Under the pieces are notes generated by a model that was not told where the DNA came from, searched no databases, and was given only the letters and a program-made list of their open reading frames with translations. Positions 2,509-35,419 of a stretch of DNA of 36,682 nucleotides are shown piece by piece. Made by a program: the position numbers and the translations under genes. Position 1 is the stretch's first letter, and each line of letters starts with the position of its first letter. The DNA is taken from the IMG/VR virus record IMGVR_UViG_2545824713_000010; one strand, 5' to 3'. Source of the stretch: a virus. Its lineage: Duplodnaviria; Heunggongvirae; Uroviricota; Caudoviricetes.

Positions 2509-2518
2509 CAGGTGCTTT

Positions 2519-2797: not shown

Positions 2798-2808
2798 AGG
2801 ACGTTGCG

Positions 2809-3161: not shown

Positions 3162-3247
3162 CAGCGCAAATAAAACCACAGGTTAAATAAGAAAATGTAA
3201 AAACAATCCGCATTCGCGGAGGTATTCGCACACGCCAAGGAGGCGTA

Positions 3248-4563: not shown

Positions 4564-4635
4564 TTCCTGTTCCGGGCCTTTCCTGCACCTTGCGGCGGGA
4601 GGCCTTCGCACATCTGTAACAAGAGGATTGCCGCA

Positions 4636-5001
4636 ATGATTCTCGCCAACGACTTTCTTGAATACCTGCTCAACACAGAGCGTGATCTTGCCGTTCGCGT
4701 GCGTGAACGTTATGACATGTACCTGAAATCCCTGCCTGTACCGCAGCTCGCTGACGGAAAGATTGTTATTGATGGTCGCTACATGATTGACAGCCACGAG
4801 GGAAATTACAGGCTTTACCGCATTGAAGGTGGCACTCCGTCCGTTATTGGCATTTACCAGCGCCCATCCTCTGCAATCGTCGATGTGATTGCCGACAGCA
4901 TCCGCATCACACATCGCTATGCCGACACAGAAGACACCGTGCTGGAAATTCAGCGGCTGGCTGCCGTTTGCCGTGACACCCTGAACGGTATGACGCAGTA
5001 A
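4636..5001 (+). CDS. Hypothetical protein immediately upstream of A
   Basis: 121-aa ORF with RBS aagagg. Confidence 0.5.
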   Translation: MILANDFLEYLLNTERDLAVRVRERYDMYLKSLPVPQLADGKIVIDGRYMIDSHEGNYRLYRIEGGTPSVIGIYQRPSSAIVDVIADSIRITHRYADTEDTVLEIQRLAAVCRDTLNGMTQ

Positions 5002-5007
5002 ATCAGT

Positions 5008-8866: not shown

Positions 8867-8870
8867 ACCA

Positions 8871-9182
8871 ATGACGACACCAACCAGAAGAATAAGTTTC
8901 TATCTGAAGCCAGCTGCCGTCAAGAACGAAGGAGAAGCATGCGCCTGGCTGGACAGCCTTACACCAGAAGCCCGCAAAAGCGGCCAACGCGTGGCTTTTC
9001 TGGCCGGGCTGGCACTTCTGAAGACGAATCCGGCAGAGGCTTACCGACTGGCCGCATGGGCTGATGATGAGATGTTACCTGTGACACAAATCAGCTCAAA
9101 AAAGTTTGAAGCACAGTCTGCACCAGTGGCTAAGATAACCAGCCAGATGGCTGGGAATATCCGGGCGTTATTTCCTGAGTAA
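8871..9182 (+). CDS. parR: ParR-like ribbon-helix-helix adaptor
   Basis: 103 aa directly after parM. RISFYLKP and LDSLTPEARKSGQRVAFLAGLAL parallel R1 ParR (RTIAFKLNP, LDSIPQGERSRLNRAALTAGLAL) as recalled from memory. Confidence 0.55.
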   Translation: MTTPTRRISFYLKPAAVKNEGEACAWLDSLTPEARKSGQRVAFLAGLALLKTNPAEAYRLAAWADDEMLPVTQISSKKFEAQSAPVAKITSQMAGNIRALFPE

Positions 9183-13100: not shown

Positions 13101-13254
13101 TGCTCCCCCTGAGTAATTACAGGAAGATTACCCGCGCGCGAAACCGTTCTCCTTAACCCCCTGTTCTGACTGTTTTCTTACAACAAAAGCCCTTTGTATC
13201 AGCCTGTTACGCTTTGCCATCATGACTGAAGAACCAGTCAGAGGGGCAAAAACT

Positions 13255-18079: not shown

Positions 18080-18533
18080 TTCCCTGCGTGAAGCCATGAC
18101 CCGTTCATGCCGATGGTGTCAGGCCAACCCGGAAAAATTCACCATTTTCGTGGAGAGCGGCAACATTGAAACGACAGGAGAAACCCCATCGTTTGTTTAC
18201 CGCTATCAGATGGTGATGTTTGTCATGGATTACGCCGGGGAGCTGGACGACCTCACGCTGCCGCTGCTGGCGTGGTTATCCAAAAATCAGCCACAGTTGT
18301 TGCTCAACCCTGAGCGTAATCAGGACATCAAATTCTCCGCCGTTATTAATGACGATGACAGCGCCGATCTCCTGTTTACGCTCCCCCTGCGGGAACGCGT
18401 TCGCATCACGCGCAGCAGTCAGGGCACACCGCAGGCAGAACACCTGCCGGAGCCAAAACCCCGCCTGCCATCTTCCGAAGGCGACTGGTCGCATGTATTC
18501 CAGGATGTGACGTGGGGTGAAAGCGATGGATAA
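18066..18533 (+). CDS. R: Tail completion protein, P2 gpR-like
   Basis: 155 aa, same length as P2 R, with a similar N-terminus (MLK.DSLR) and the motif PLLAWL.KNQP. Confidence 0.8.
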   Translation: MLKTDSLREAMTRSCRWCQANPEKFTIFVESGNIETTGETPSFVYRYQMVMFVMDYAGELDDLTLPLLAWLSKNQPQLLLNPERNQDIKFSAVINDDDSADLLFTLPLRERVRITRSSQGTPQAEHLPEPKPRLPSSEGDWSHVFQDVTWGESDG

Positions 18534-19161
18534 GGCATTCACCCGCGTGGATGAAACCTTTGAGGCCATCCGCGACAGCCTGAATCAGCAGGCCATCAAT
18601 AACATCGCCAGAAAGCTGGCACAGAATTTACGCCGCGCCCAGCAGGCGCGTATCCGGTCACAGAAAGCGCCGGACGGGACCGCGTGGACACCACGCAGAC
18701 GCCGCGTAACCCGGATACAGGAACGCATTCGCTTTATCTGGAATAACGAAGCACGCACGCTGAAAAACTGGCATCACGACACGGGGAAATACGGGCGAAC
18801 CATTACCGGGTGGGATGAGGATAAAAACAATATCCGCACGTTTTACCGGGATGACATCGACCGTTTTCTGGAAATACGCACCCGGCGCATCAACCAGGAC
18901 AGCACCAGGCGCGTCCCCATGTTCGTAAAACTGCGCACCGCCCGCTACCTGAAAGCCCGTGCAGATGCTTCCGGTGTGACGGTGGGTTACAGCGGCGTGG
19001 CTGCACGTATTGCACGCGTTCATCAGTTCGGTGAGCGCGATCAGGTTGCGCCGGGCATTTTCACCGATTACCCGGTACGTGAGCTGCTGGGTATCAGCCA
19101 GACAGATGAACGCCTGATTTATAACACGGTGCTGGGCCGGATTGCGGAGGCTGTACGGTGA
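18526..19161 (+). CDS. S: Virion morphogenesis / tail completion protein (P2 gpS position)
   Basis: ORF 18517..19161; ATG at 18526 (a GTG at 18517 is the alternative start); positional call, longer than P2 S. Confidence 0.65.
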   Translation: MDKAFTRVDETFEAIRDSLNQQAINNIARKLAQNLRRAQQARIRSQKAPDGTAWTPRRRRVTRIQERIRFIWNNEARTLKNWHHDTGKYGRTITGWDEDKNNIRTFYRDDIDRFLEIRTRRINQDSTRRVPMFVKLRTARYLKARADASGVTVGYSGVAARIARVHQFGERDQVAPGIFTDYPVRELLGISQTDERLIYNTVLGRIAEAVR

Positions 19162-19739
19162 GCGCAGAACTCATGCGGCTGCTGAGCAACATCATCCGCA
19201 CCGGGATCATCTCTGAAGTTGATGAGGAATCCTGGTGCGTGCGCGTTCGCAGCGGCGAACTGGAAACAGGCTGGCTGCGCTGGAACACCACGCGCGCGGG
19301 TGCCTTCAATGTGTGGTTGCCGCCATCACCAGGCGAACAGGTGGTAATTGCCTGCATTGGCGGCAACCCGGAAACCGCCATGATAATTGGCAGCCTGTGG
19401 AGTGATGCCAGTCCGGCCCCCGGCAAAAGCCTGAAAGAAATCGTGGTCAGCGCGCCGGATGGCGCGGTGTTCCGCTACGACGCAGACGCTGGCGCACTGA
19501 GCGCCAGCGGCATGAAAACAGCCACCCTGCAGGCATCCGTCAGCGTGACACTGGATACGCCCGTCGTGGAATGCACAAACCTTCTGAGAACAGCGACGCT
19601 TGACGTCACAAAAGGGGGAAAGATGAGCGGCAATATCACGCACAGCGGCGGCGATTTCACCTCAAACGGCATCACAGTGCATACGCATAAGCACGGTGGC
19701 GTTAAAGGTGGCAGCGATTCGACAGGAGGCCCGCAGTGA
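19158..19739 (+). CDS. V: Baseplate spike protein, P2 gpV-like
   Basis: 193 aa; ATGA-type overlap with S; C-terminal region HTHKHGG fits a spike apex metal-binding motif. Confidence 0.8.
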   Translation: MSAELMRLLSNIIRTGIISEVDEESWCVRVRSGELETGWLRWNTTRAGAFNVWLPPSPGEQVVIACIGGNPETAMIIGSLWSDASPAPGKSLKEIVVSAPDGAVFRYDADAGALSASGMKTATLQASVSVTLDTPVVECTNLLRTATLDVTKGGKMSGNITHSGGDFTSNGITVHTHKHGGVKGGSDSTGGPQ

Positions 19740-21511: not shown

Positions 21512-23794
21512 ATGAGTACCACAACACGAAAATTTAAAACCGTTATCACCGATACGGGTGCAAAAAAATTAGCTCAGGCAGCCGCGCCAGATGGTAAGCC
21601 TGTCCGCCTGACTCATATGGCCGTGGGCGACGGTGGCGGCACGTTGCCCACACCAGACAGTAAGCAGACCCGTCTGGTGCATGAGGTGTGGCGACACACT
21701 GTTAATCGCGTCATCCTGGACGCAACACATCAGAACCGCATTATTGCGGAGCTGGTTATTCCTCCTGAAACGGGCGGATTCTGGATCCGGGAAATTGGTG
21801 TATTTGATGAGCACGGCGATTTAATCGCGGTGGGCAATACTGCCGAAAGTTACAAGCCAGCCGTTGCCGAAGGGTCCGGTCGTGCACAAACGTTTCGCAC
21901 CATTCTGACCGTATCCAGCACTGCCACCGTGGCGCTTACCGTGGATAACACCATGGTGATGGCCACAGTGGATTACGTGGATGACAAACTGAAAGAGCAT
22001 GAACGGTCACGACATCACCCGGACGCCTCGCTGACCGCAAAAGGCTTTGTTCAACTCAGTAGCGCCACTAACAGCGTGTCTGAAACGCAGGCTGCAACGC
22101 CGAAAGCAGTAAAGGCAGCATATGACCTGGCTAATGGCAAATACACCGCACAGGACGCTACCACTGCGCGGAAAGGGATAGTTCAGCTCAGTAGCGCCAC
22201 CAACAGCACGTCTGAAACGCAGGCTGCAACGCCGAAAGCAGTAAAGACCGCGTATGATCTTGCTAACGGTAAATATACTGCGCAGGATGCCAGCACGACG
22301 CGAAAAGGCCTTGTCCAGCTCAGTAGCGCCACCAACAGCACGTCTGAAGCGCAGGCTGCAACGCCGAAAGCAGTAAAGGCCGCGTATGACCTTGCTAGCG
22401 CAAAATATACCGCTCAGGACGCCACGACGACACAAAAAGGGATAGTCCAGCTCAGTAGTGCCACCAACAGCACGTCTGAAACACTGGCCGCGACACCGAA
22501 AGCGGTTAAGGCGGTAATGGATGAAACGAACAAGAAAGCGCCTTTAAACAGTCCTGCGCTGACCGGAACGCCAACAACGCCAACTGCGCCAAAAGGGACT
22601 AATAATACTCAGATCGCAAGCACGGCTTATGTGATGGCCGCGATTGCCGCACTTGTAGACTCGTCGCCTGACGCACTGAATACGCTGAACGAGCTGGCGG
22701 CGGCGCTGGGCAACGACCCGAATTTTGCGACCACCATGACTAAAGCGCTTGCGGGTAAGCAACCGAAAGATGCCACCCTGACGGCGCTGGCCGGGCTTGC
22801 TACTGCGGCAGACAAGTTTCCGTATTTTACGGGGAATGATGTCGCCAGCCTGGCAACTCTGACAAAAGTCGGGCGGGATATTCTTGCGAAATCGACCGTT
22901 GCCGCTGTTATCGAATACCTCGGTTTACAGGAAATGGTAAACAGGGCCAGGAACGCGGTGCAAAAGAATGGCGATACCTTGTCCGGTGGGCTTACTTTTG
23001 CAAACGACTCAATCCTTGCCTGGATTCGAAATACTGACTGGGCAAAGATTGGTTTTAAAAATGATGCTGACAGCGATACTGATTCATTCATGTGGTTTGA
23101 AACAGGCGACAACGGCAATGAATATTTCAAATGGAGAAGCCGCCAGGGCACCACAACAAAAGACCTGATGACGCTGAAATTGAATGCACTAAATATTCTG
23201 GTTAATGCCGTCATTAATGGCAGTCTTGGAGTTGGTACAACGAATGCGTTAGGTGGTAGCTCAATTGTTCTTGGTGATAATGATACCGGATTTAAACAGA
23301 ATGGTGATGGTATTCTGGATGTTTACGCTAATAGTCAGCGAGTATTCCGCTTTCAGAATGGAGTTGCTATTGCTTTTAAAAACATTCAGGCAGGTGATAG
23401 TAAAAAGTTCTCGCTATCCAGCTCCAACACCTCCACAAAGAATGCAACGTTTAATTTATGGGGTGCTTCAACCCGTCCAGTAGTTGCAGAGTTAGGCGAT
23501 GAGGCAGGATGGCATTTCTATAGCCAGCGAAATACAGATAACTCGGTAATATTTTCTGTTAACGGTCAGATACAGCCCAGCAACTGGGGGAATTTTGATT
23601 CACGCTATGTAAAAGATGTTCGCCTGGGTACGCGTGTTGTTCAATTGATGGCGCGTGGTGGTCGTTATGAAAAAGCCGGACACGCAATTACCGGATTAAG
23701 AATCATTGGTGAAGTAGATGGCGATGATGAAGCCATCTTCAGACCAATACAAAAATACATCAATGGCACATGGTATAACGTCGCACAGGTGTAA
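21512..23794 (+). CDS. H: Tail fibre protein, P2 gpH-like, with constant N-terminal part and invertible C-terminal receptor-binding part
   Basis: 760 aa; four tandem 43-aa repeats; crossover site inside the gene at 22908..22933; C-terminus ends INGTWYNVAQV, like the alternative segment. Confidence 0.9.
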   Translation: MSTTTRKFKTVITDTGAKKLAQAAAPDGKPVRLTHMAVGDGGGTLPTPDSKQTRLVHEVWRHTVNRVILDATHQNRIIAELVIPPETGGFWIREIGVFDEHGDLIAVGNTAESYKPAVAEGSGRAQTFRTILTVSSTATVALTVDNTMVMATVDYVDDKLKEHERSRHHPDASLTAKGFVQLSSATNSVSETQAATPKAVKAAYDLANGKYTAQDATTARKGIVQLSSATNSTSETQAATPKAVKTAYDLANGKYTAQDASTTRKGLVQLSSATNSTSEAQAATPKAVKAAYDLASAKYTAQDATTTQKGIVQLSSATNSTSETLAATPKAVKAVMDETNKKAPLNSPALTGTPTTPTAPKGTNNTQIASTAYVMAAIAALVDSSPDALNTLNELAAALGNDPNFATTMTKALAGKQPKDATLTALAGLATAADKFPYFTGNDVASLATLTKVGRDILAKSTVAAVIEYLGLQEMVNRARNAVQKNGDTLSGGLTFANDSILAWIRNTDWAKIGFKNDADSDTDSFMWFETGDNGNEYFKWRSRQGTTTKDLMTLKLNALNILVNAVINGSLGVGTTNALGGSSIVLGDNDTGFKQNGDGILDVYANSQRVFRFQNGVAIAFKNIQAGDSKKFSLSSSNTSTKNATFNLWGASTRPVVAELGDEAGWHFYSQRNTDNSVIFSVNGQIQPSNWGNFDSRYVKDVRLGTRVVQLMARGGRYEKAGHAITGLRIIGEVDGDDEAIFRPIQKYINGTWYNVAQV
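22042..22525 (+). repeat. Four tandem ~129-bp coding repeats (KG.VQLSSATNS.SETQAATPKAVKAAYDLANGKYTAQDA)
   Basis: Repeats start near 22042, 22175, 22304 and 22436; typical phage tail-fibre repeat. Confidence 0.75.
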
Positions 23795-24325
23795 ATGATG
23801 CAGCATTTAAAAAATATTAAGTCAGGAAATCCAAAAACAAAAGAGCAATATCAGCTAACAAAGAATTTTGATGTTATCTGGTTATATACAGAAGACGGTA
23901 AAAACTGGTATGAGGAAGTGAAAAACTTTCAGCCAGACACAATAAAGATTGTTTACGATGCAAATAATATTATTGTCGCCATCACTAAAGATGCCTCCAC
24001 GCTTAACCCTGAAGGTTTTAGCGTCGTTGAGGTTCCCGATATTACAGCCAACCGCCGCGCTGATGATTCAGGAAAGTGGATGTTTAAGGATGGAGCTGTA
24101 GTTAAACGGATTTATACGGCAGACGAACAGCAACAACAGGCCGAATCACAAAAGGCCGCGTTGATTTCCGAAGCTGAATCAGTCATCCAGCCGCTGGAAC
24201 GCGCTGTCAGGCTGAATATGGCAACAGACGAGGAACGCACACGACTGGAAGCATGGGAACGCTACAGCGTTCTGGTCAGCCGTGTGGATACGGCAAATCC
24301 TGAATGGCCACAAAAGCCTGAATAA
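23795..24325 (+). CDS. G: Tail fibre assembly chaperone, P2 gpG-like
   Basis: 176 aa (P2 G is 175 aa); conserved N-terminal half shared with the inverted paralogue. Confidence 0.85.
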
Positions 24326-24330
24326 AAATT

Positions 24331-24350
24331 AAGGCCCGATAGCGGGCCTT
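24331..24350. terminator. Bidirectional hairpin between convergent chaperone genes (aaggcccg atag cgggcctt)
   Basis: Perfect 8-bp GC-rich stem in the 28-bp spacer between the two convergent genes. Confidence 0.45.
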
Positions 24351-24353
24351 GTT

Positions 24354-24887
24354 TCATTCTGGTTGTTCTGGAAACGTTACTGGCAGGCTGGAGGTGTCTG
24401 TGGATTCGACCTTCTGCGCATAGAGCATCCACTCGGTTAATTTTTGTTTATTCTCGTTGGAAATGATACCCAGCCGTAGCTGTGAGTCCCATAGCTGGGT
24501 TTTATCCCTGACGAGCTGTAGCAGGCTTTGCTTTTCATTTTCCGCTTGTTGCCTCTGCTCTTCCTCGGTATAAGTTCGCTTTATCACTACGCCATCTTTG
24601 AACATCCATTTCCCCGAAATATCAGCCCGGCGATTTGCTGTAATATCAGGTAATTCAACGACGCTTGCACCCTCTGGATTAATTGCTGAAACATCCTTTT
24701 CAATACAAATAATAACGCCGTTATGGTCATAGACCATTTTCAAAGTGTCTGGCTGGAAATTCTTTTGTTCCTCATACCAGTTTTTTCCATCATCTGAATA
24801 AAGCCATTTGATGTTAAATTGCTTTGTTAGCTGGTATTGCTCTTTTGTTTTAGGGTTGCCAGCAGTAATGTTTTTTAAGTGCATCAT
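24354..24887 (-). CDS. Alternative tail fibre assembly chaperone (G', Mu U'-like)
   Basis: 177 aa; N-terminal half near-identical to G ([29 protein letters not shown]), C-terminal half divergent. Confidence 0.8.
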   Translation of the reverse strand: MMHLKNITAGNPKTKEQYQLTKQFNIKWLYSDDGKNWYEEQKNFQPDTLKMVYDHNGVIICIEKDVSAINPEGASVVELPDITANRRADISGKWMFKDGVVIKRTYTEEEQRQQAENEKQSLLQLVRDKTQLWDSQLRLGIISNENKQKLTEWMLYAQKVESTDTSSLPVTFPEQPE

Positions 24888-24889
24888 CG

Positions 24890-25834
24890 TTAAATACTCC
24901 CCGCGTTATACCACGTCCCATTAATGCAATACTGAATTGGCCTTGCCTGAGTTGTATCAATTAATTCATCACGGTTTCCGTTAACTGAACCCGTAACGAC
25001 ATAACCTGACCTGTCAGACCAGCCGGGACCATTCCATGTCTGAACAGATGACAGACCGCCAAGGCGAATACCTGTAATAAACCTTGAGTTACATTCTGCC
25101 TGCGTATATGCTCCAACATCTCCCGCAGAGGGTTTGCGGGTTGTGGTGTAAAACTCTGACCAGTCAGCTTCAAAGCCATAACCATCTCGCGCTGAACGAT
25201 AATAAATACCGCCGTTCTTATAATTCACACGGAACTGAACCGCCGGGCAACTCCCCGCATTCATATTAAAGTGAAGAATCAATGTTGACGCTCCACTAAT
25301 AGTCGCATTATAAACGCCGCTATTTGAGTTCCATCCAACAGCTTTGTCATTTCCAACAGTGCTTCCTGTCTGCCCTAAAGCAAATGCAGGCTGCTGGTTT
25401 TTCGTGTTGTAGTCTCTTCGCCAGCCAGGAGCATAAGCATTACCATGATTAATATAGGTGAATTGAGCGTTAGTAATTCCGCCACCGCTGGATGTACTCG
25501 GCGTAGTAACGCGTATGGTCATTGCGCCGCGAGTGCCAATAACTTCCACCACAGCACCTGCAAGACAAATATTTCCGCAACCTGTATCTGTAATGACCTT
25601 ATTGTTTGCATAAGCCCATGAGCCTTTGCACATCCAGTAAGGATGGTTAAATGCCCCCTGACTCTCCAGCCACGAAATGAATTGTGCGGTTGTCCAGGTC
25701 TGACTATCGCCACCAATATTCAGCCATGCGCTATATGCGCGGCAGGCACCAATATTTTTGGTGAAGGTATCTTTTCCTGGAATATCTGCGCCGTTCTGTT
25801 TTTTCTGTAATGCGCCAGAAGCCTGATTTACCGT
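24890..25834 (-). CDS. Alternative tail-fibre C-terminal segment (Hv'), no own start; expressed only after inversion fuses it to the H constant part
   Basis: Open frame continuous from the right crossover site to the stop at 24890 (track ORF 24890..25633); ends QYCINGTWYNAGSI, parallel to the H C-terminus. Confidence 0.7.
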   Translation of the reverse strand, partial: TVNQASGALQKKQNGADIPGKDTFTKNIGACRAYSAWLNIGGDSQTWTTAQFISWLESQGAFNHPYWMCKGSWAYANNKVITDTGCGNICLAGAVVEVIGTRGAMTIRVTTPSTSSGGGITNAQFTYINHGNAYAPGWRRDYNTKNQQPAFALGQTGSTVGNDKAVGWNSNSGVYNATISGASTLILHFNMNAGSCPAVQFRVNYKNGGIYYRSARDGYGFEADWSEFYTTTRKPSAGDVGAYTQAECNSRFITGIRLGGLSSVQTWNGPGWSDRSGYVVTGSVNGNRDELIDTTQARPIQYCINGTWYNAGSI

Positions 25835-25914
25835 TTCCTGTAAACCGAGGTTTTAGATAATGGCCGTTTCTGGCCTGCATGGCATGATTTGCGCTTTTGG
25901 ACGGGAGATTCAGT

Positions 25915-26505
25915 GTGCTGATTGGCTATGTAAGGGTATCAACAAATGACCAGAATACAGACCTGCAACGAAACGCTCTTGTTTGTGCAGGATGTGAACA
26001 AATATTTGAAGATAAATTAAGCGGGACAAAGACTGACCGACCGGGATTAAAACGCGCTTTAAAGCGCCTTCAACAAGGTGACACGCTGGTTGTCTGGAAA
26101 CTGGATCGCCTCGGGCGAAGCATGAAACATCTGATTTCTCTCGTCGGGGAACTACGGGAGCGAGGGATTAATTTTCGCAGTCTGACCGACAGCATAGATA
26201 CATCTTCTCCAATGGGGCGTTTTTTCTTCCACGTGATGGGTGCCCTGGCTGAAATGGAACGTGAATTAATTGTTGAACGTACACTGGCCGGACTGGCGGC
26301 AGCGCGCGCACGGGGGCGCACAGGCGGACGTCGACCGAAGCTGACAAAAGAACAGCATGAGCAAATAGCAAGGCTGATTAAAAACGGTCACGACAGAAAA
26401 CAACTGGCAATAATTTACAGCATTGGTATATCGACAATTTATCGTTACCACCCCGCAGGAGAATCAAGTGGAACAATTGAGAAGAGTAAACAAAATAACC
26501 GCTAA
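25915..26505 (+). CDS. Serine DNA invertase, Hin/Gin/Cin/Pin family
   Basis: GTG start gives MLIGYVRVSTNDQNTDLQRNAL, strongly matching e14 Pin / Hin as recalled; catalytic-serine motif VRVST and a C-terminal HTH. Confidence 0.85.
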   Translation: MLIGYVRVSTNDQNTDLQRNALVCAGCEQIFEDKLSGTKTDRPGLKRALKRLQQGDTLVVWKLDRLGRSMKHLISLVGELRERGINFRSLTDSIDTSSPMGRFFFHVMGALAEMERELIVERTLAGLAAARARGRTGGRRPKLTKEQHEQIARLIKNGHDRKQLAIIYSIGISTIYRYHPAGESSGTIEKSKQNNR

Positions 26506-26527
26506 TCTGGCCATTAGCGGTTTTTGT
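26498..26527. terminator. Bidirectional rho-independent terminator between the convergent invertase and U genes (accgctaat ctggcc attagcggt then TTTTT)
   Basis: 9-bp stem overlapping the invertase stop, T-run on the plus strand and A-run upstream for the minus strand. Confidence 0.55.
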
Positions 26528-26533
26528 GTTAAA

Positions 26534-27028
26534 TCAGAACAGCCCTTTAACGGAGCTGGCCGCGCTGTTAAGGGATAATGTGACCTTATCTTTGAAGCCG
26601 GACAGCATATCGCTGAACGATGAGGATTGCAGGCGCTCCCGCAAATCCTCATCACAGCGTTCAAGGGTCAGTGAAAATTCTATTTTTTTCGCCTTACCGT
26701 AGCGATCAAATTCAGAGCGGGTCGTACTCGTTTCGGTCAGGACATACATGCCGTAAATCTGCCCGACGCCATCAATCAGAGGCCAGGGGCGTCCTGTATA
26801 TGCCTGCGTGGTCAGCAGCGACAGCGACACTTCGCCACCTGTAATTTCAGGATAAAGCACGCCTGAAAGCACGATGCGATCATTACCTGCACCGATATAC
26901 TGCCAGCTTGCTGAACGGTTAACGCGTTCATTTTTCACATGCCGCCAGCTTTTGTTTTGCTGTAACTGCTGATGCGGCAGCGTGCGCAACTCAAAAACAA
27001 ACATGCCGTAGATCATCATCATGACCAT
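26534..27028 (-). CDS. U: Tail protein, P2 gpU-like
   Basis: 164 aa; N-terminus resembles P2 U as recalled; position downstream of T on the same strand. Confidence 0.75.
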   Translation of the reverse strand: MVMMMIYGMFVFELRTLPHQQLQQNKSWRHVKNERVNRSASWQYIGAGNDRIVLSGVLYPEITGGEVSLSLLTTQAYTGRPWPLIDGVGQIYGMYVLTETSTTRSEFDRYGKAKKIEFSLTLERCDEDLRERLQSSSFSDMLSGFKDKVTLSLNSAASSVKGLF

Positions 27029-27034
27029 GACTCC

Positions 27035-29878
27035 TCAATCTTTATCGTAAAAACTGCCACGCCCGGCACGGGCGCGCCGTTCCATTTCTGCCCTGACCAT
27101 TTCGCCAACCAGTTTCGCCAGTTCACGGGGATTCTGCGTAACAACGTTATGCAGATGAACATGAATTTCACCGCCAAATCCGGAGGCAACAGGCTCCCGG
27201 TTACGGGAAGTTGCAGGAACTGATGCCACTGGCGATCGTATAGCCTCCGCCACCGGGCGGGAGCTGGCCGCAACAACAGGGACCAGCGCCGGAGGCAGCG
27301 GAGCCGGAACTACGGGGGTGATATTAATTGCGGGGGCAGGCTTACTGACCTGCGGAATCTTCCGCTCCTGCCACTCCCCACGAACGGCAAGTGCGCGGGG
27401 CAGGTTCTTAAAGACAATATCGCCGGGGCCAATACGTTTTTTCGTCTCATCAACCAGCTTACCTGTGTTATCAGCAATTTTGCTGAGCCTGCGTAGCGTA
27501 CCGGTATTGTTGTCTGTGAGCGGTTTGTTGTCTTTGGGTTTATCACCTCCGGAGCCATTTCCATTTTCCACAGGCTTCGGCGGATTGATTTTCGCCAGGT
27601 CCCCCTGAAGCAAGGCAACCTTGTCCTGAAGAATGGCCGCACGCTGTGCGTCTTCGATTTTCTTTCTCGCCCGTTCCGCTTCATCCGGAAGCACTCCGAG
27701 CTTTTCAAGTATCCACGCCAGTGAATCCATCAATGCTTTTGTTGGTGTCAGGACAAGCTCTATCGCTCCACCAAGTACCCTGCCAAATACCTCGCCAGCA
27801 CTGGTACATTTATCCAGCGTTTCCTTGCTGGACTCCATCGGTGACAGCAGCGATTTAAACCAGTTAAACACCTGGCTGATCCCGCTTCCGATTGCGTCAA
27901 AAACAGGACCGAACCGTTCAAAGGTTTCGCGCAACGGAGCCAGCCGTTCCATAATCCCACTGAACACCCCTGCATAAAACGCCTTGATGGGTTCCCAGTA
28001 TTTCCAGATGAGAACCGCCGCAGCCACAAACGCAGCAGCAATCAATCCGACCGGGCTGAACAGCGCCCCGATAGCGCCCCCCAGTAACGAAACGGAACCC
28101 GTCACCATTCCCCATAGTGCTGGCAGGAGCCTGACAGCATTCATTGATCCGGTCAGGAGGGAAAAGCCAAGACGCAGTTTTGCCAGCGGGCCAGCAAGCA
28201 CACCAATAGCCAGCGACAACGAGCCGACCGTTGCAGTCATCGCCAGCAACGCCCCACCTGCAATCAGTAGCTGGCGCGTCAGTGCCGGATGGGCCTGCGC
28301 CAGCGCCGTCACCTTTGATACCACCCGCGTGAGCCACTGCGTGACAGAACGCAGCGGACCGTCAATCAGATCTGCAATGCGGATGCGCAACCCTTCCCAT
28401 GCACTGCCGAGTGATTTCAGATCGCCGTCAAGGTTGTTGGCCATAACCTTTGCCGTGCGTTCAGCCTCACCGCGTGCGCCTTCAAGTTCTTTTCTCAGTT
28501 TAGGTAAGGATCCGTCACCTGCCGCATCAACGAGGGCCATAAATGATGTGAAAGCCTCTTCTCCGGCAATGTCCTTAAAGAACGATACCCGATCAACTTC
28601 TCCGTATTTGCGGGTGGCTTTATAAAGGTCAGTCAGCAGATCTTCCATCGGGCGCATTTTGCCCCCGGCATCCGAGACAGACACGCCCAGCTCTTTCAGC
28701 GCCTCTGCTGCCGCCTTTGGCGGTGATGCCAGACGAGCCAGGCTGGCACGCATTGCCGTCCCGGCATCACTTCCCCTGATACCCATATTCGCCAGCACGC
28801 CCGCCATCGCTGCGGCCTGCTCCAGCGATATTCCCAGCTTACCCGCCACCGGACCTGCATATTTCATGGTTTCGCCCAGTGCGCGAAGGTCAGTGTTGGT
28901 ACGGGTAAACGCTGCAGTGAGTGTGTCACCGACCCGGTCCATCTGGTCAGCAGAAAGGCCGAACTGCGTCAGGATATTTGAGCCAATATCCGCCGTCTCG
29001 CCGAGATCCATACCGCCAGCCGTTGCCATGCTCAACACGCCGGGAAGCGCAGCCTGAATGGCCTGCGGTGTGAAGCCAGCCATTGCAAGAAATGCCTGCC
29101 CACTGGCGGCATCGCCTGCGGTGAACTGCGTTTCAGAGCCAAGTTTTAACGCCTGCTCACGCAGCGCCTTAAACTGCGGGCTGTTCTGGTCGATTCGCGT
29201 CAGCGCCTGAACGCGGGACATCTCTTTCCCGAACCCGATCGCAGGCTGCAAAAAACGCCCGGCAGCATAGCCGCCCGCCGCTGCCGCACCAGTTGCCAGC
29301 GCACCACCTGTTTTCAGTTTTCCCGCGGTTTCCTGCACGCGCGAATACCGCTCACGCGCCCGCGTTACACGCGCAAGCGCCTGCCGTTCGCGTTCAAGCT
29401 GGTTGTTGTACTGTTCGGTGCGTCTGATGGCCTGCTGGATGGTGTTATCGCTGCCTGTCAGGGAAATGCCGTGGCGTTTCAGCTCTCCGCCAAGCTCCCG
29501 CATTTTCTGAATTTCCCGTGTGCGCGATTCATTCAGGCGTTCAAGCCGGGTGCTTAACTGCTGCATCAGCTTTTGTTGTTTTTCGCTGAGCACTGTACCC
29601 GTGCGTTGTAACTGATTAAGGGCGTTAAGCTGGCGTCGCGCTTTCACGATGCCCGCATCCGCTGTACTGACAGCGTCGCGGGCGCGCTCAAATGAACGCG
29701 CCTGACGCTCGAGATTTTTGATCGCCCCCTGCGTTCGCTGGATGGAGTCACCAAACCGCCCCATCAGGCGGCGGGCGTTTTCGGCAGGCCGGGTCAGCCT
29801 GTCAACGGCGCTGAAAGCGACCCGGATATCAAGAGTCTTCATTATCTGCATTCCCGCTGCGAAGTGCCGCCCGCTCAC
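27035..29878 (-). CDS. T: Tail tape measure protein, P2 gpT-like
   Basis: 947 aa; coiled-coil N-terminus, Ala/Gly-rich hydrophobic central region; follows the E/E' chaperone pair. Confidence 0.85.
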   Translation of the reverse strand: MSGRHFAAGMQIMKTLDIRVAFSAVDRLTRPAENARRLMGRFGDSIQRTQGAIKNLERQARSFERARDAVSTADAGIVKARRQLNALNQLQRTGTVLSEKQQKLMQQLSTRLERLNESRTREIQKMRELGGELKRHGISLTGSDNTIQQAIRRTEQYNNQLERERQALARVTRARERYSRVQETAGKLKTGGALATGAAAAGGYAAGRFLQPAIGFGKEMSRVQALTRIDQNSPQFKALREQALKLGSETQFTAGDAASGQAFLAMAGFTPQAIQAALPGVLSMATAGGMDLGETADIGSNILTQFGLSADQMDRVGDTLTAAFTRTNTDLRALGETMKYAGPVAGKLGISLEQAAAMAGVLANMGIRGSDAGTAMRASLARLASPPKAAAEALKELGVSVSDAGGKMRPMEDLLTDLYKATRKYGEVDRVSFFKDIAGEEAFTSFMALVDAAGDGSLPKLRKELEGARGEAERTAKVMANNLDGDLKSLGSAWEGLRIRIADLIDGPLRSVTQWLTRVVSKVTALAQAHPALTRQLLIAGGALLAMTATVGSLSLAIGVLAGPLAKLRLGFSLLTGSMNAVRLLPALWGMVTGSVSLLGGAIGALFSPVGLIAAAFVAAAVLIWKYWEPIKAFYAGVFSGIMERLAPLRETFERFGPVFDAIGSGISQVFNWFKSLLSPMESSKETLDKCTSAGEVFGRVLGGAIELVLTPTKALMDSLAWILEKLGVLPDEAERARKKIEDAQRAAILQDKVALLQGDLAKINPPKPVENGNGSGGDKPKDNKPLTDNNTGTLRRLSKIADNTGKLVDETKKRIGPGDIVFKNLPRALAVRGEWQERKIPQVSKPAPAINITPVVPAPLPPALVPVVAASSRPVAEAIRSPVASVPATSRNREPVASGFGGEIHVHLHNVVTQNPRELAKLVGEMVRAEMERRARAGRGSFYDKD

Positions 29879-30065
29879 GCCAGCTAACCACTTCGCCGGG
29901 CGTCATCATGAAGATTTCGGCGGGCGACCAGTTAAAAATAACGGCAATATCTGCCACAAAGTCTTCTATGTGCTCAAAGCACACAACCGTGATCAGGCTT
30001 CCGTCGCCTGTTCGTTCTTCCCGCCAGAGTCCGCACCGCTCAAAAAATTTACGGCAACCACACAT
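29829..30065 (-). CDS. E' extension reached by programmed -1 frameshift (E+E' product)
   Basis: The -1 frame ORF 29829..30065 overlaps the E 3' end; slippery T TTT TTG on the minus strand at 30041..30047, as in P2 E/E' and the lambda G/GT paradigm. Confidence 0.55.
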   Translation of the reverse strand: MCGCRKFFERCGLWREERTGDGSLITVVCFEHIEDFVADIAVIFNWSPAEIFMMTPGEVVSWRERAALRSGNADNEDS

Positions 30066-30358
30066 AACTGAATAAAGTCACGGGATGCCATTTTTTTGAT
30101 CGTCACTTCATCCAGTCGCGGTGATGTCACGCGTGACAGCAGCGTAAACATGGATTCCGCTTTCAGATTCAGCACATCAGACAGCGACAAATCTCGCAGA
30201 GATCCAGCCTGCTCAATAGCCCCGGTGATCTCCACATACGTGATTTTTTCGCCGCCTCGCTCAATTGGTTGGGTAAGTTTTACGCCACGCTCACTGGTTT
30301 CTTTCACAGTGTCAGTAACTACCGTGTTTTCGGTATCGATGTTTTTCGTCTCTTTCAT
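29993..30358 (-). CDS. E: Tail assembly chaperone, P2 gpE-like (frame 0 product)
   Basis: 121 aa between the tail tube and tape measure genes; contains the slippery T-run. Confidence 0.7.
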   Translation of the reverse strand: MKETKNIDTENTVVTDTVKETSERGVKLTQPIERGGEKITYVEITGAIEQAGSLRDLSLSDVLNLKAESMFTLLSRVTSPRLDEVTIKKMASRDFIQLCVVAVNFLSGADSGGKNEQATEA

Positions 30359-30412
30359 CAGGAAACTCCTTTCAGTCAGAGGCGACGCACTGCGCCGCCT
30401 GCATATTACTTA

Positions 30413-30925
30413 TCAGCCAAGCCCAAGCGCGGAACGGATGCGATCGGGCACAATGTCCTTGCCGTCCTTCCGGTAAATGAAGTTCAGCAGGTCAATCTCC
30501 CACAACGGGCGATCGTTAACGCTCAGCTTGTAGTAGGTGTTTTTAATGGCGTAAGTGTGTGATGTGGCTTCGCCCTGTTTGGCTTCCCCCATATCAATTT
30601 CCGTCACACGTCCGCGCATTTCGACTTCATACAGGTCGCTTTCTGCATCGGTGTAGTATTCACCCGCAAAACGCAGCAGCGTGCCGTCAATCGTGCCGCC
30701 ATACTTAAGGAACAGCTCACGAACTGCGCCCCCCATGACAAAGCTCGCATCAAGCGCGGAGTCGTCCAGACCGAGATCAATACTTACCGCCCCCATCATG
30801 CCACCACCCCGGTAGCTGTCGGTTTTGCGCGTCAGTTTGGGCAGAGTGACGGACGTCACCTTACCCACTTCGTTTTCACCATCCACAAACAGCGTAAAAA
30901 AGCGAAGATGTTTTGGCACAGCCAT
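30413..30925 (-). CDS. FII: Tail tube protein, P2 gpFII-like
   Basis: 170 aa (P2 FII is about 172 aa); immediately downstream of the sheath gene. Confidence 0.85.
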   Translation of the reverse strand: MAVPKHLRFFTLFVDGENEVGKVTSVTLPKLTRKTDSYRGGGMMGAVSIDLGLDDSALDASFVMGGAVRELFLKYGGTIDGTLLRFAGEYYTDAESDLYEVEMRGRVTEIDMGEAKQGEATSHTYAIKNTYYKLSVNDRPLWEIDLLNFIYRKDGKDIVPDRIRSALGLG

Positions 30926-32109
30926 CAGGCACCTCCCAGCACCGCAAATGCGGGTTCAAAGTATTCATCAGTAAACGTCTGGTAAAGCTCCATATCTTCC
31001 AGCGGGGGAACAGGCGTATATTTGTAGCGAATACGCACACGCCCCTGACGTAAATCCGTGGTGCTGTTATCCACCACGTCATACCAGCACTCCGCGCCAA
31101 TCAGTTTCCCGGCAGTCACCAGTGAATCCAGTTTTGCCCTGATGGCGCTGATAACATCCTTCACGTTCGCAGGCGTCAGTGGACTGTCGATGGTTTCAAA
31201 CTGCGCTTCCGCAATTGAATCAGCCAGCACCTGTGCGGTTCGGGTATACACCTCAAAGATGTAGGCGTTCGTTTCCGGTGTGCGGTTGCCCCAGAAGCGG
31301 AACCCGTTGCGACGAATAATGGTCGTGATTTCTTTGTTATTGAGGCTGTTGGCATCACTGTCTTCGGCCTGCAACGACCAGAACACATGCCTCGACATCC
31401 CCAGCACATTTTTAACCGGAACGTTGGACAGCGATTTGTGCCAGCCCTGCTCATGGTCAATGTACGCACGAAGGCCGCACGCATAAGCAGGAGCGGGGAA
31501 CGTTTCGTTTTTGCCACTTTTCGGGTTGTAGGCGATGAAGTCCGGCCATAAGAGCATCACCTCACGTTCGTTGAATTTCTGGCGGTAGGTAATTGCCTCA
31601 GCCATCGTGTTACAGTCATGACATGAGGCATACACAAACGCGCGCAGTTTACCCGCAATCACGCACAGGGATTTTGTCACCGCCTCCGTGTCCAGCTCCG
31701 GCGCGGCCAGAATACGCGGACGGTATCCGATGCTTTCATCCTGCTCTGCAACAAGCAGCGCATACATCCCCGTATAGCTGCCGTCAGATTCAGAACCACC
31801 GATAACCAGTTGATCCTGCGTCTTACCGCCTTCTTCTTTGTGTTCAGCCACGCGAACGACGATCACCTTTGTGCTCACCTGGTCTGCGATGGCCTTAAGC
31901 GCACGATAAAGCGTCCCCGTTGTCCCGCATTTTCCCAGCACGTCATTGACGCGGGTCAGCAATGTGGGCTTGTTCAGCGGGAACAGCTTCGCGTCCGCAT
32001 CATCCGCCGTTGCCACGATACCGATAACACTGGAATCAACATCATTAATCGCTGTTACCAGGTCGGTATTTTCCGTAACACGGGCACCATGAAAACGAGT
32101 TTCACTCAT
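30925..32109 (-). CDS. FI: Contractile tail sheath protein, P2 gpFI-like
   Basis: 394 aa; FPLNKP, LRAF.Y, WPDF, EQGWHK.LSNV, IRR.GFRFWGNRT and YTPVPPLE match P2 FI as recalled. Confidence 0.9.
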   Translation of the reverse strand: MSETRFHGARVTENTDLVTAINDVDSSVIGIVATADDADAKLFPLNKPTLLTRVNDVLGKCGTTGTLYRALKAIADQVSTKVIVVRVAEHKEEGGKTQDQLVIGGSESDGSYTGMYALLVAEQDESIGYRPRILAAPELDTEAVTKSLCVIAGKLRAFVYASCHDCNTMAEAITYRQKFNEREVMLLWPDFIAYNPKSGKNETFPAPAYACGLRAYIDHEQGWHKSLSNVPVKNVLGMSRHVFWSLQAEDSDANSLNNKEITTIIRRNGFRFWGNRTPETNAYIFEVYTRTAQVLADSIAEAQFETIDSPLTPANVKDVISAIRAKLDSLVTAGKLIGAECWYDVVDNSTTDLRQGRVRIRYKYTPVPPLEDMELYQTFTDEYFEPAFAVLGGA

Positions 32110-32266
32110 AGCTTCAGCCCCTTGTATCCGTTAAATGATTCGGCAACAATCATCACCCACCACGCGCGTAATCTCACCCCCTGCGCCGTTCTCCCGCCAC
32201 GGCGACAACAAAAAGCAGTAACCCCCTCCGCACGCACATGCGACCATGCCGCACAGGGAGGGAAAG

Positions 32267-33376
32267 ATGACCGACACCACCATGCAATTGCTCAGTCAGA
32301 GCACAGACCCCGTGAAAATGCCGGATTTTGATATTCTCGCGGAGGGGGAAACGCTGTCCGGCGTGGCAGAGCGCCTGATGAGTCTGTCACTGACCGACAA
32401 CCGGGGATTTGAAGCGGACCAGCTCACCATCACGCTGGATGATGCGGATGGTCAGTTGCAGCTACCGCCACGGGGCGCGCGCCTGACGGTTCTCATTGGC
32501 TGGAAAGGAGAACCGCTGACAGAAAAAGGCACTTACATTGTTGATGAAATCGCTCACGAAGGACCGCCGGACAGGCTGACGGTTTCAGCCAGAAGCGCAG
32601 ATTTTCGGGGTGAATTTAACGTTAAACGTGAGGTGTCCTGGCATGATGTGACCGTTGAGCGAGTGGTATCCGCCATCGCTCATCGGTACGGTCTGAAACC
32701 GCAAATCAGCGAAATGCTGATGGATATCGAAATCGACCACGCCGACCAGACCGAAGAAAGTGACATGTCCTTCCTTACGCGCATGGCGGAAATGCTGGGC
32801 GCAATCACCACGGTAAAAAGCGGTAATCTGTTATTCATCATGCCCGGCGGTGGCGTGAACGCACAGGGCCAGCCGTTGCCATCGTTCGCCATCACACGCA
32901 GCAGCGGCGATCGCCATCAGTTTCGCATTGCTGACCGCGAGGCGTATACGGGGGTACGCGCTTACTGGCTTGATCTTAATTACGGGAAAAAGAAAAAAGT
33001 CAGCGTGAAACGCCGCAAACCGCCAAAACCCAAAAAGGAGAAAAGCAGCAGCCGTGAAGGTGATTATATGGAAGGCGCAGAAGGCAATGTGTTTGTGTTA
33101 CGCAAGACTTATCAGAACGAGCAGGCAGCAAGACGCGCAGCAGCGGCAAAATGGCAGCAGCTACAACGCGGAGCCGCATCATTCTCCATCACGCTGGCGC
33201 GTGGACGCGCAGAACTCTATCCCGAAATGCATGGCACGGTGAAAGGCTTCAAAAGTGACATCGACAATCAGGACTGGATTATTGCAAAAGCTGAGCACAC
33301 CATTGATAACAGCGGCTTTACCACACAGCTTGAGCTTGAGGCAAAAATCCCGGAATGGATAGCGGAAACAGAGTGA
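32267..33376 (+). CDS. D: Tail protein D (late control gene D family)
   Basis: ORF 32246..33376; the ATG at 32267 has RBS gggaggg; about 369 aa. Confidence 0.85.
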   Translation: MTDTTMQLLSQSTDPVKMPDFDILAEGETLSGVAERLMSLSLTDNRGFEADQLTITLDDADGQLQLPPRGARLTVLIGWKGEPLTEKGTYIVDEIAHEGPPDRLTVSARSADFRGEFNVKREVSWHDVTVERVVSAIAHRYGLKPQISEMLMDIEIDHADQTEESDMSFLTRMAEMLGAITTVKSGNLLFIMPGGGVNAQGQPLPSFAITRSSGDRHQFRIADREAYTGVRAYWLDLNYGKKKKVSVKRRKPPKPKKEKSSSREGDYMEGAEGNVFVLRKTYQNEQAARRAAAAKWQQLQRGAASFSITLARGRAELYPEMHGTVKGFKSDIDNQDWIIAKAEHTIDNSGFTTQLELEAKIPEWIAETE

Positions 33377-33418
33377 AGAACTTAGAATAGCGGCAGCACC
33401 ACGTTAAGGGAGGTCGCT

Positions 33419-33679
33419 ATGTTCCGTTGTCCGCTTTGTGGCGCATCTGCCCGTATCCGCACCAGTCGTCCGGAAAATGATTCAAACACCGTGCGGCAAA
33501 AGTATTACCAGTGTAACAACCTGGAATGCGGCGTATGCTTCTCAACACTGGAAGCCTTCCATAAATTCACATCGAAACACGCCTCCGGCGTTCACTCATC
33601 AGAAGGTATTCCGTGGCATGAGCTGCCAGCTTCACACAGGGGAAACAATCAGATGAGTTTGCCTTTACCTCAGAATTAA
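33419..33679 (+). CDS. ogr: Ogr/Delta-type zinc-finger late-gene activator
   Basis: MFRCPLCGA...YYQCNNLECG gives a C-x2-C...C-x4-C zinc motif matching P2 Ogr as recalled (MFHCPLC...YHQCQNVNC). Confidence 0.8.
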   Translation: MFRCPLCGASARIRTSRPENDSNTVRQKYYQCNNLECGVCFSTLEAFHKFTSKHASGVHSSEGIPWHELPASHRGNNQMSLPLPQN

Positions 33680-33767
33680 CAGGCAGAATTGCCGGAGTAA
33701 CAAAAAAGCGATAGATTACGTGCGGGTGCCTTTCGGCTGATGGTCGGAGGGAATACCCGAAGGCCAG

Positions 33768-33953
33768 ATGTGGAAAGGCCCCGAGTCAACTTTAACGTTA
33801 ACCCGAGGCCCTAACCATCTACCCTTAGCAAGTGATAGGTTAGCGCCTCCCCGAAAAAGGAGCAAGCGCTATGTCGCAAAAATCGCTTACGGCCATCACG
33901 TTCTGCGTGACGGCAATCCTCATCATCTGGATGCTGCACGGTTCGCTGTGTGA
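33768..33953 (+). CDS. Possible mok-like overlapping reading frame of the hok-like locus
   Basis: 61-aa ORF in a different frame that overlaps the hok-like start, the arrangement seen for mok/hok; weak evidence. Confidence 0.3.
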   Translation: MWKGPESTLTLTRGPNHLPLASDRLAPPRKRSKRYVAKIAYGHHVLRDGNPHHLDAARFAV

Positions 33954-34011
33954 AATACGGATGAGCTTCTGGGGAGCGGAGTTTGCGGCGTTCTTACAGT
34001 GTAAGCAGTAA
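33871..34011 (+). CDS. Hok/Gef-family type I toxin-like small membrane protein (46 aa)
   Basis: MSQKSLTAITFCVTAILIIWMLHGSLCEIRMSFWGAEFAAFLQCKQ: a hydrophobic helix then SLCEIR and EFAAF, matching Hok (KSLCEIR...EVAAF) as recalled; RBS aaggag; below the ORF-track cutoff. Confidence 0.6.
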   Translation: MSQKSLTAITFCVTAILIIWMLHGSLCEIRMSFWGAEFAAFLQCKQ

Positions 34012-34020
34012 GGAAACCGC

Positions 34021-34042
34021 GACGGGGGAGTAATCCCCCGTC
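34021..34042 (+). terminator. Stable hairpin after the hok-like stop (gacggggga gtaa tcccccgtc)
   Basis: Perfect 9-bp GC stem immediately 3' of the toxin ORF; no clear U-tract. Confidence 0.4.
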
Positions 34043-34188
34043 AATCAGTTGCCGGGATAAGGTCGATAAGGCATCCTGTCTCACTCTATACCAGCTAATC
34101 AATTGACACATATCAATAAAAAGCCTGATAAAATCAAAATATTTTGTTACAAATGTCAGCTAGTAGAGGGCCAAAGGAGGCAGATTAT

Positions 34189-34521
34189 ATGGCATTAATC
34201 AAATGTCCTGAATGCCAGAAAGAGGTGATCGATTCAGTATTGTCTTGCCCTGCTTGTGGCAAACAACTGAAAAATCTTAAACGCTCATTTTTTGGAGAAC
34301 TCATTAAGTGTTTTTTTATATTATTTAATATTTTTATAATCTACACGATTTGTATTGGGCTAAGAGAGGTGGGTGAAATAATAAACAACGCCACATCCGA
34401 TGTCGAAAAAGCCGGTACAGTTATTGGTACGGGCTTAGGTTTAATTGCTATTGGAGGCTTATGGGTTATTGGCAATATCATTATCGGAAATTTAGTATTT
34501 CTTACTAAACCAAAGGGATAA
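34189..34521 (+). CDS. Zinc-ribbon membrane protein (CPEC...CPAC then two TM segments)
   Basis: ATG with RBS aaggagg; AT-rich gene; the N-terminal C-x2-C-x13-C-x2-C is followed by hydrophobic and Gly-rich helices. Confidence 0.55.
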   Translation: MALIKCPECQKEVIDSVLSCPACGKQLKNLKRSFFGELIKCFFILFNIFIIYTICIGLREVGEIINNATSDVEKAGTVIGTGLGLIAIGGLWVIGNIIIGNLVFLTKPKG

Positions 34522-34525
34522 CAAA

Positions 34526-35419
34526 ATGAAAAATGTGATTATTTCTATAGGCGCATCATTTATATCAATTAGTGTGCTACCTGCTCACGCAGCAACTGAG
34601 CATAATAACTTTAAGTCATCACTCCAGTGCCGAGCAATAGAAAATAATAAAGAAAGACTTTCTTGTTATGATAAGTCAATACAACCGACTCGAACGACAG
34701 TTGCTGAAAAATTCGAAAGCAGAGATCAATGCCCTGATGAGAAAGATGATGACAGACGTTTATCTTGTTATGACCGTTTTTTTTCTCCAACATTTACTCC
34801 GCCTGTAAGCTCAAAATCTAAAGTGAAACAGCTAGTAACAACAGAGACTCAGCAACCAAATCTTTCTGAGATATCTAAATGTCGAGCAGAAAACGATAAA
34901 GAAACTAGAGTAAACTGCTACGATAAACTATTTTCACAGGAAAAAGCTACGCAATCTAAATCAAAATTAGAGAAAGCCACAGACTCAGGAAAATGGCACA
35001 CATCCATTACTACATCGCCAATTGATGATTCGAAAAATGTAATTTTATCGTTAGAAAGTGATGATTATATAAGAACTCCATTTGGAGAAGCGGTTACCCC
35101 TACTCTGTTTATAGCTTGCCGAGAAAAGAAAACCGAAGTATTTCTTAATTGGGATGTATATTTAGGCCTTGAACAAACCAGCATGCTGTATCGCCTTGAT
35201 AAACAGAAAGCAGTTGAGCGAAACTGGCTAGTATCTACAGATACAAAGGCTGTTTTTTATAAAGGCAATGACATTAACTTCATCAGAAAACTAGCCAACT
35301 CAAACAAAATGTATGCAAGAATAACCCCTTATAATGAAAGCCCTGTAAGTGCAACTTTCAATTTAAACGGCCTGTCAACCACGCTAAAACCGCTTCAAGA
35401 AGCCTGTAACTGGAAATAG
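34526..35419 (+). CDS. Secreted/periplasmic protein with three Cys-pair repeats (C-x9-11-R/V-x-CYD)
   Basis: N-terminal signal peptide ending AHA-ATE; repeats LQCRAIENNKERLSCYDK, QCPDEKDDDRRLSCYDR and KCRAENDKETRVNCYDK; AT-rich. Confidence 0.6.
   Translation: MKNVIISIGASFISISVLPAHAATEHNNFKSSLQCRAIENNKERLSCYDKSIQPTRTTVAEKFESRDQCPDEKDDDRRLSCYDRFFSPTFTPPVSSKSKVKQLVTTETQQPNLSEISKCRAENDKETRVNCYDKLFSQEKATQSKSKLEKATDSGKWHTSITTSPIDDSKNVILSLESDDYIRTPFGEAVTPTLFIACREKKTEVFLNWDVYLGLEQTSMLYRLDKQKAVERNWLVSTDTKAVFYKGNDINFIRKLANSNKMYARITPYNESPVSATFNLNGLSTTLKPLQEACNWK

Follow-up and report, generated by a model that had tools for sequence, protein, structure and literature searches.

Reversed FI to U tail gene block as a conserved layout in a branch of P2-like phages, with a predicted bidirectional late promoter between FI and D

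The tail genes FI, FII, E/E', T and U lie backwards, compared to P2, in a 36,682 nt viral sequence (IMG/VR record IMGVR_UViG_2545824713_000010; the whole of this stretch is referred to below as the window), and this is almost certainly how the block normally lies in a large branch of P2-like phages, P88, PhiSM and SEN4/5 among them, in which the layout is old and conserved. The spacer separating FI from D probably acts as a bidirectional late promoter with a single shared Ogr site, judging from an alignment of relatives and by analogy with a promoter pair of P2. An old inversion defining the clade, taken together with this shared late promoter, is very likely the best explanation of the arrangement.

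An ORF map and family searches placed all of the genes named in the initial annotation at the same positions and on the same strands (Table 1). The minus strand from 26534 to 32109 carries U, T, E/E', FII and FI, and the plus strand carries D and ogr. The convergent ends of the invertase and U genes are 28 bp apart, and the divergent spacer between FI and D is 157 bp, the length first described. This length follows from taking ATG 32267 as the start of D, behind its own Shine-Dalgarno sequence (GGGAGGG, 32256–32262). The true start of the invertase is probably GTG 25915, reading MLIGYVRVSTNDQ from there, and that of gpT may lie about 12 codons further in, going by the P88 annotation. An Ogr/Delta zinc-finger activator (PF04606), as required by an Ogr/Delta-dependent late promoter, is encoded in the window. 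PADLOC found no defence genes among the cargo ORFs.

Table 1. Positions of genes, recombination sites and predicted regulatory elements in the window
Feature	Position	Strand	Basis
Second candidate activator site, GTTCT-N12-ACAACAAAA	13163–13188	none	Divergent P/O spacer
Left gix-like crossover site of the invertible tail-fibre segment	22908–22933	inverted relative to right site	26-mer match
Right gix-like crossover site, immediately 5' of the invertase gene	25835–25860		Exact match TTCCTGTAAACCGAGGTTTTAGATAA
DNA invertase, Gin/Cin/Pin-type serine (resolvase-type)	25897–26505	+	PF00239 (2.3e-50), PF02796; phrog_125 (2e-96)
Bidirectional intrinsic-terminator hairpin, common to the convergent invertase and U ends	26497–26522	both	10 bp stem
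gpU, tail protein, final gene of the leftward F operon	26534–27028	-	PF06995 (1.5e-39); 47% identity to P2 U
gpT, tape measure (extent of its longest reading frame)	27035–29878	-	PF10145 (4.6e-58); phrog_28
E' frame, overlapping E	29829–30065	-	PF06528, phrog_1756
E+E', -1 frameshift product	29829–30358	-	P2-type slippery TTTTTTG at 30047–30041; P2 annotates an E+E' frameshift
gpE	29993–30358	-	phrog_103
gpFII, tail tube	30413–30925	-	PF04985 (7.5e-47)
gpFI, tail sheath, at the head of the leftward operon	30925–32109	-	PF04984, PF22671, PF17482; phrog_23 (2e-127)
Predicted -10 (GATGAT) of leftward late promoter P_F	32149–32154	-	Conserved offset; predicted start about 32142–32143
Candidate Ogr-family activator dyad, TCT-N12-ACA	32190–32207, centre 32198.5	none	Alignment of relatives
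Predicted -10 (GACCAT) of rightward D-ogr late promoter P_D	32242–32247	+	Conserved offset; predicted start about 32254
gpD, tail/baseplate hub	32267–33376 (longest ORF from 32246)	+	PF05954; phrog_52 (8e-166); 49% identity to P2 D
Ogr/Delta-type zinc-finger late activator	33419–33679	+	PF04606 (5.1e-14); 42% identity to P2 Ogr over residues 1–51

The window carries the full late gene set examined (Q P, O N M L X ... R S V W J I H G, FI FII E T U D, and ogr) along with int, C, cox and A, all in the order of P2, and is thus P2-like (Peduoviridae). Searches by tblastn matched 26 of the 31 P2 proteins in the window, all collinear and with identities of 25–94%; only FI, FII, E, T and U were on the opposite strand compared to P2, the other late genes being co-oriented. 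The C-terminal part of H and the entire G are about 93% identical to P2, and the remainder 31–61%. The F operons of P2, 186 and Fels-2 share with the window their genes, internal order, TTTTTTG frameshift in E/E', and an Ogr-type activator with its dyad. In these phages, however, the block points the same way as D, U overlaps D, and all seven genes depend on one P_F; the deposited annotations of P2 and Fels-2 show the common direction for FI to U, D and ogr. In the window, FI to U runs the other way, D and ogr make up a rightward unit of their own, and a divergent promoter region lies between them. ORF strands, tblastn and the P2 and Fels-2 annotations thus agree with the initial annotation, which described the block as inverted relative to D/ogr and to P2 and 186.

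By its sequence, the window is an ordinary P88-like, P2-family prophage of the genus Xuanwuvirus. The region 23500–34000 aligns with phage P88 in a single collinear match running from 23588 to 34000 (99% coverage, 96.0% identity) and with Citrobacter phage PhiSM and Xuanwuvirus P884B11 at 94–95% identity, while bases 1–25000 match PhiSM at 95.3% identity over 96% coverage and P88 at 95.0% over 81%. The ICTV genus threshold is about 70% identity across the genome length, and nucleotide identity to P88 and relatives extends across most of the genome. Across nearly the whole window, P88 and PhiSM (Peduoviridae, Xuanwuvirus) are 94–96% identical to it; the order and strands of invertase, U, T, E, FII, FI, D and ogr are the same, also in their deposited annotations, and the minor differences are in cargo genes and tail-fibre C-termini, with none in the FI to U block. 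The synteny comparison proposed in the initial annotation therefore gave a clear outcome, with P88, PhiSM and P884B11 collinear and on the same strands.

The layout is common in Escherichia coli. E. coli ATCC 43896, whose genome is finished, is 100% identical across 25897–33679, and at least 80% of that region was present in one collinear place in 1107 of 5426 complete E. coli genomes. A 757 bp probe of the FI/D junction (the spacer with 300 bp from each of the two flanking genes) was contiguous in 1358 of the 1376 matching genomes from the same set, so that about one in four of these complete genomes shows this layout. It is also carried by working phages: P88 is inducible and plaque-forming, and its genome was determined from virion DNA (PMC5285337), PhiSM is temperate and spontaneously active (PMC6456863), and SEN4/5 were documented by plaques and electron microscopy (PMC5261728). 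The initial annotation had reasoned that the same orientation in functional P2-like relatives would point to a conserved architecture, and P88, PhiSM and SEN4/5 do carry it as their normal layout. SEN4/5 (Senquatrovirus) and Klebsiella phages of Reginaelenavirus have an inverted FI to U block beside D-ogr with D proteins 63–73% identical to that of the window, although they belong to other genera and SEN5 has no invertase or invertible fibre segment beside U.

The depth of the inverted layout was assessed from 160 loci, the best 80 viral contigs, retrieved with the D protein of the window, and the best 80 loci from bacterial assemblies (one genome per species), retrieved with an alignment of three D proteins; each locus was then sorted by tblastn. 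Among the matches listed, the viral contigs gave only relatives of 98–100%, and the depth came from the bacterial assemblies. Where D was at least 61% identical to that of the window, all of the loci among the matches listed (109/109) read U- T- E- FII- FI- D+ ogr+, while at 54% identity or less every listed locus with visible neighbours read FI+ ... U+ D+ ogr+. Rare exceptions may lie beyond the best 80 hits of each set. The inverted block was found in Escherichia (E. coli), Salmonella, Kluyvera, Kosakonia, Enterobacter, Klebsiella, Xenorhabdus, Photorhabdus, Providencia, Rouxiella, Hafnia, Morganella, Yersinia, Pectobacterium, Citrobacter and Dryocola, and in the isolated phages SEN5 (Senquatrovirus) and Klebsiella phage Kp4871-3 (Reginaelenavirus). 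Among the matches listed, identity to the window was 55–97% for FI of inverted loci versus 45–51% for canonical ones, and 51–96% versus 38–50% for U; the D proteins of canonical phages were 47–54% identical. Neighbour-joining trees separated inverted from canonical loci in all bootstrap replicates for D (100/100), FI (60/60) and U (60/60). The window shares the features of the inverted clade, with FI and D divergent over a short spacer, U distal, and D and ogr co-directional. P2, Fels-2 and the outgroup, Burkholderia phage phiE202, have the canonical order, so the inverted state is derived. The simplest reading of the D identity split and of the three trees is one old, clade-defining event. 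A lineage-specific arrangement, the first of three options in the initial annotation, is therefore the correct one, as seen in the uniform layout of the 109 listed loci and in the trees. The second option, a large inversion, survives in part: an inversion that founded the clade long ago is retained as a proposal, and a recent or strain-specific one is excluded by the tree split, the counts across E. coli genomes and the plaque-forming relatives.

The FI/D spacer was compared among 30 non-redundant members of the clade. Most of it has diverged freely, and a central dyad is the sole conserved element, reading exactly TGT-N12-ACA, the classical Ogr-family form, in 25 of the 30 aligned spacers. 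TCT-N12-ACA, one mismatch from this form, is found in the window and its two nearest relatives, and the symmetric variant TCT-N12-AGA in two prophages of Providencia; P2 sites are also imperfect, with TGT-N12-CCA at P_F and at P_P/P_O. A scan of the window for exact TGT-N12-ACA returned three sites, fewer than expected by chance and none in the FI/D spacer, since the site there reads TCT-N12-ACA. An alternative dyad picked out by eye (CGCCGT-N9-ACGGCG, 32184–32204) was rejected, as it is not conserved among relatives.

Hexamers of the form nAnnAT are found at a fixed distance on both sides of the dyad. On the left, 28 of 30 relatives have the hexamer exactly 43 nt away from the centre of the dyad, and all 30 have it at 42–45 nt; on the right it is at exactly 43 nt in 26 and at 42–45 nt in 27, and at any other offset the pattern occurs in at most 6 of 30. 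The left hexamer of the window (GATGAT) is one base farther out than in most relatives. Starts predicted 7 nt past each hexamer would be about 55.5 nt from the dyad centre, the leftward one giving a 33 nt leader to FI and the rightward one lying just before the Shine-Dalgarno sequence of D. No sigma-70 consensus was found by scanning the FI/D spacer; the one weak site (33255–33282) is within the 3' end of D, and the region is below chance. This absence fits activator-dependent promoters and is not evidence by itself. Small ORFs annotated over the predicted promoter region in P88 (SF19_gp50) and SEN5 (SEN5_27) are probably spurious.

A second candidate activator site (Table 1) is found in the divergent P/O spacer, and also has TCT, as in the FI/D dyad. 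The pattern common to the two (14 specified bases) occurs in the window only at 13163–13188 and 32188–32213, but was built from the same two sites it retrieves, making any estimate of chance circular. The position of the P/O site suits a -10-like sequence (CATCAT, 13218–13223) and the O start codon (ATG 13256) behind AGAGGGG. In P2, the mapped starts of P_P and P_O (3016 and 3127) are each 55.5 nt from the centre of the dyad at 3063–3080. The FI/D spacer resembles this promoter pair in having a single dyad midway between two divergent units, and its -10-like hexamers predict the same geometry of 55.5 nt to either side. The P_P/P_O starts are experimentally mapped, whereas those of the FI/D spacer, and their dependence on Ogr, are predicted, and P2 has no FI/D pair. 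The initial annotation had suggested searching this spacer for two divergent Ogr-dependent promoters; an Ogr-type site is present, though as one shared dyad and not as two separate sites.

In the proposed scheme, one old inversion, or an equivalent re-insertion, would have separated U from D in an F operon of the P2 kind and left FI to U reversed; all descendants would have retained the reversed block, which became fixed in this P2-like clade of the Enterobacterales. One Ogr-binding dyad about 55 bp upstream of two divergent starts would activate both directions. Transcription from the leftward start would proceed from FI to U and end at the bidirectional terminator at 26497–26522, and that from the rightward start would proceed from D to ogr. 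As the dyad is symmetric, an inversion that brought the P_F site beside D could activate D, and it is proposed that the severance of D from its operon was tolerated because the symmetric site could supply this activation. On balance, it seems reasonable to suppose that the palindromic site once served P_F only, was moved beside D by the ancestral inversion, and now fires both ways.

An alternative origin of the layout is mosaic replacement, in which an ancestor lost FI to U and regained the module, reversed, from another phage. P2-like genomes are mosaic, as exemplified by the near identity of G and the C-terminal part of H to P2 (about 93%), and the interval between G and U is a hot spot for cargo genes. 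This origin is nevertheless unlikely: compared to canonical phages FI (45–51%), U (38–50%) and D (47–54%) have one split in common, and this shared split and similar divergence mean that the FI–U module is no more foreign than its neighbours. The data fit both an inversion in situ and an early re-insertion of the module in the opposite orientation.

It is very improbable that the arrangement is a recent inversion confined to this strain, disabling the prophage by cutting off D from the promoter of the F operon. The D gene of P2 overlaps U and lacks a dedicated promoter; reversal of the block should therefore leave it orphaned. However, the layout follows the deep split of the D, FI and U trees in every bootstrap replicate and is present in plaque-forming phages (PMC5285337, PMC5261728), and D is preceded by a Shine-Dalgarno sequence of its own and, at the appropriate spacing from the dyad, by a conserved -10-like element.

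The invertase gene abuts the block, which raises the question of whether the orientation seen is one of two states of a programmed, reversible inversion by this Gin-like enzyme; one relative (L082) carries a rearrangement in which T is split and two inverted invertase genes are present. The crossover sites indicate otherwise. A gix-like 26-mer has only two matches in the window, at 22908 and 25835, mutually inverted and with none expected by chance, and the same scan found no third site near 26505–26534 or 32109–32267. A search of 23000–34500 for inverted repeats around the block gave only short, chance-type matches, and no long inverted repeat brackets 26534–32109. The block does not qualify as a segment of the Gin/Cin/Hin/Pin kind, as both 26 bp sites bracket the tail-fibre segment instead, and the invertase would flip only that segment (22908–25860), leaving FI to U alone. 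In addition, many clade members have no invertase and an unchanged orientation, and no locus of the clade among the matches listed has the opposite one. A switch of this type is accordingly regarded as scarcely credible. At the border between invertase and U, the terminator hairpin has T-runs on both strands and scored as a terminator both ways; its predicted RNA fold is at -16.7 kcal/mol (z -3.6), and none of 200 shuffled sequences was equally stable.

An assembly error, with the block mis-oriented during contig building, was raised initially only because the layout departs from P2, found no support, and is effectively excluded by identical junctions in virion genomes that were each sequenced separately (P88 by 454, PhiSM and SEN5), by the contiguous FI/D junction in 1358 complete E. 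coli genomes and complete identity of the region to a finished genome, and by the functional-looking signals at the junctions (the bidirectional terminator and the conserved dyad).

As a sequence feature the layout is already known, being present in deposited, annotated genomes of working phages from three genera. The papers describing P88, SEN4/5 and PhiSM (PMC5285337, PMC5261728, PMC6456863) do not mention the inversion, and no discussion of it or of a shared FI/D late promoter was found in the literature searched, which covered few subscription journals and so is weak evidence. The sole element that may be mildly new is the predicted bidirectional late promoter with a single dyad, proposed from sequence comparison and by analogy with P2.

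The result is chiefly a negative one, in that the backwards block is neither a misassembly, nor the mark of a decaying prophage, nor a new switch. The layout is to be expected whenever P2-like prophages are annotated, occurring as it does in about one in four complete E. coli genomes and in three or more ICTV genera, and it provides a simple synteny marker for the inverted-block branch of Peduoviridae. If the shared promoter is real, all late genes would run from two bidirectional activator sites, P/O and FI/D, and D-ogr would be a self-activating late unit, uncoupled from sheath and tube expression. The operon would then have been rewired without regulatory loss, a clade-defining inversion of the tail operon apparently being tolerable by way of a symmetric, bidirectional activator site.

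The scaffold gene O has two candidate start codons. The first ATG of the reading frame falls within the predicted -10/start region of the late promoter P_O, while the second (see the table) is preceded by AGAGGGG and agrees with the N-terminus of P2 O, and is more likely to be the start of the gene. Further downstream, genes S and V overlap, so a separate P_V region like that of P2 would not fit between them. Only two activator-type sites (predicted Ogr-family dyads, in the P/O and FI/D spacers) were found in the whole window. Given this small number, and the absence of space for P_V, the late genes may be driven by two bidirectional sites, compared to the three promoter regions of P2.

Features of the prophage, with positions in the window
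Feature	Position	Details
ParM/StbA actin-like ATPase	within 7907-9182	PF06406 (3.5e-82), PF21523
Plasmid_stab_B protein	within 7907-9182	PF10784 (1e-23)
O, first ATG	13222	
O, second ATG	13256	
S/V overlap	within 18517-19739	S end 19161, V start 19158
H (C-terminal part) and G	within 22286-25860	
Cargo region	34144-35419	GC 0.37
Zinc-ribbon protein	within 34144-35419	
VasI/TagO-like type VI secretion-associated protein	within 34144-35419	PF11319 (1e-24)

The C-terminal part of H and the whole of G share about 93% protein identity with P2, and the other proteins of the phage are 31–61% identical to their P2 counterparts. The invertible tail-fibre segment, together with the invertase region, shows 90–96% DNA identity to the G and C segments of Mu, D108, P1 and P7. 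The tail-fibre cassette is common to unrelated phage families through horizontal sharing.

Among the E. coli relatives (genome matches H43-H51), the site left of U, between it and G/invertase, is a variable cargo position and the analogue of fun(Z) in P2. It carries HxsB/HxsC radical-SAM genes, YecA, PIN-domain or DUF3800 genes, or IS elements, depending on the genome, and this cargo either replaces the invertase or adjoins it. The prophage itself has a low GC cargo region downstream of ogr; PADLOC gave no matches there. PhiSM has a tagO gene annotated at the equivalent position.

In a close relative (L082, positions 430-7612 of IMGVR_UViG_2654587728_000014), the tape-measure gene is broken at residue 455, its distal half and U point the other way, and between the tape-measure halves lie two distinct invertase genes (81–84% identity to that of the window), arranged head to head. 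This arrangement may have arisen by secondary inversion or by insertion, or the contig may be chimeric. L086 (NZ_JBQPOM010000071.1) is an enterobacterial prophage region on a contig of a Firmicute assembly, 'Vagococcus sp. WN89Y'. It has the same gene layout as the window and a D 97% identical, and most likely represents contamination of the Vagococcus assembly.

A plasmid-type partition pair is located between A, the replication gene, and the gene for the portal protein, and a ParM annotation is also present in one relative. Because the prophage carries both a ParM/StbA and a Plasmid_stab_B gene, the question arises whether these P2-like phages are able to persist as plasmids.
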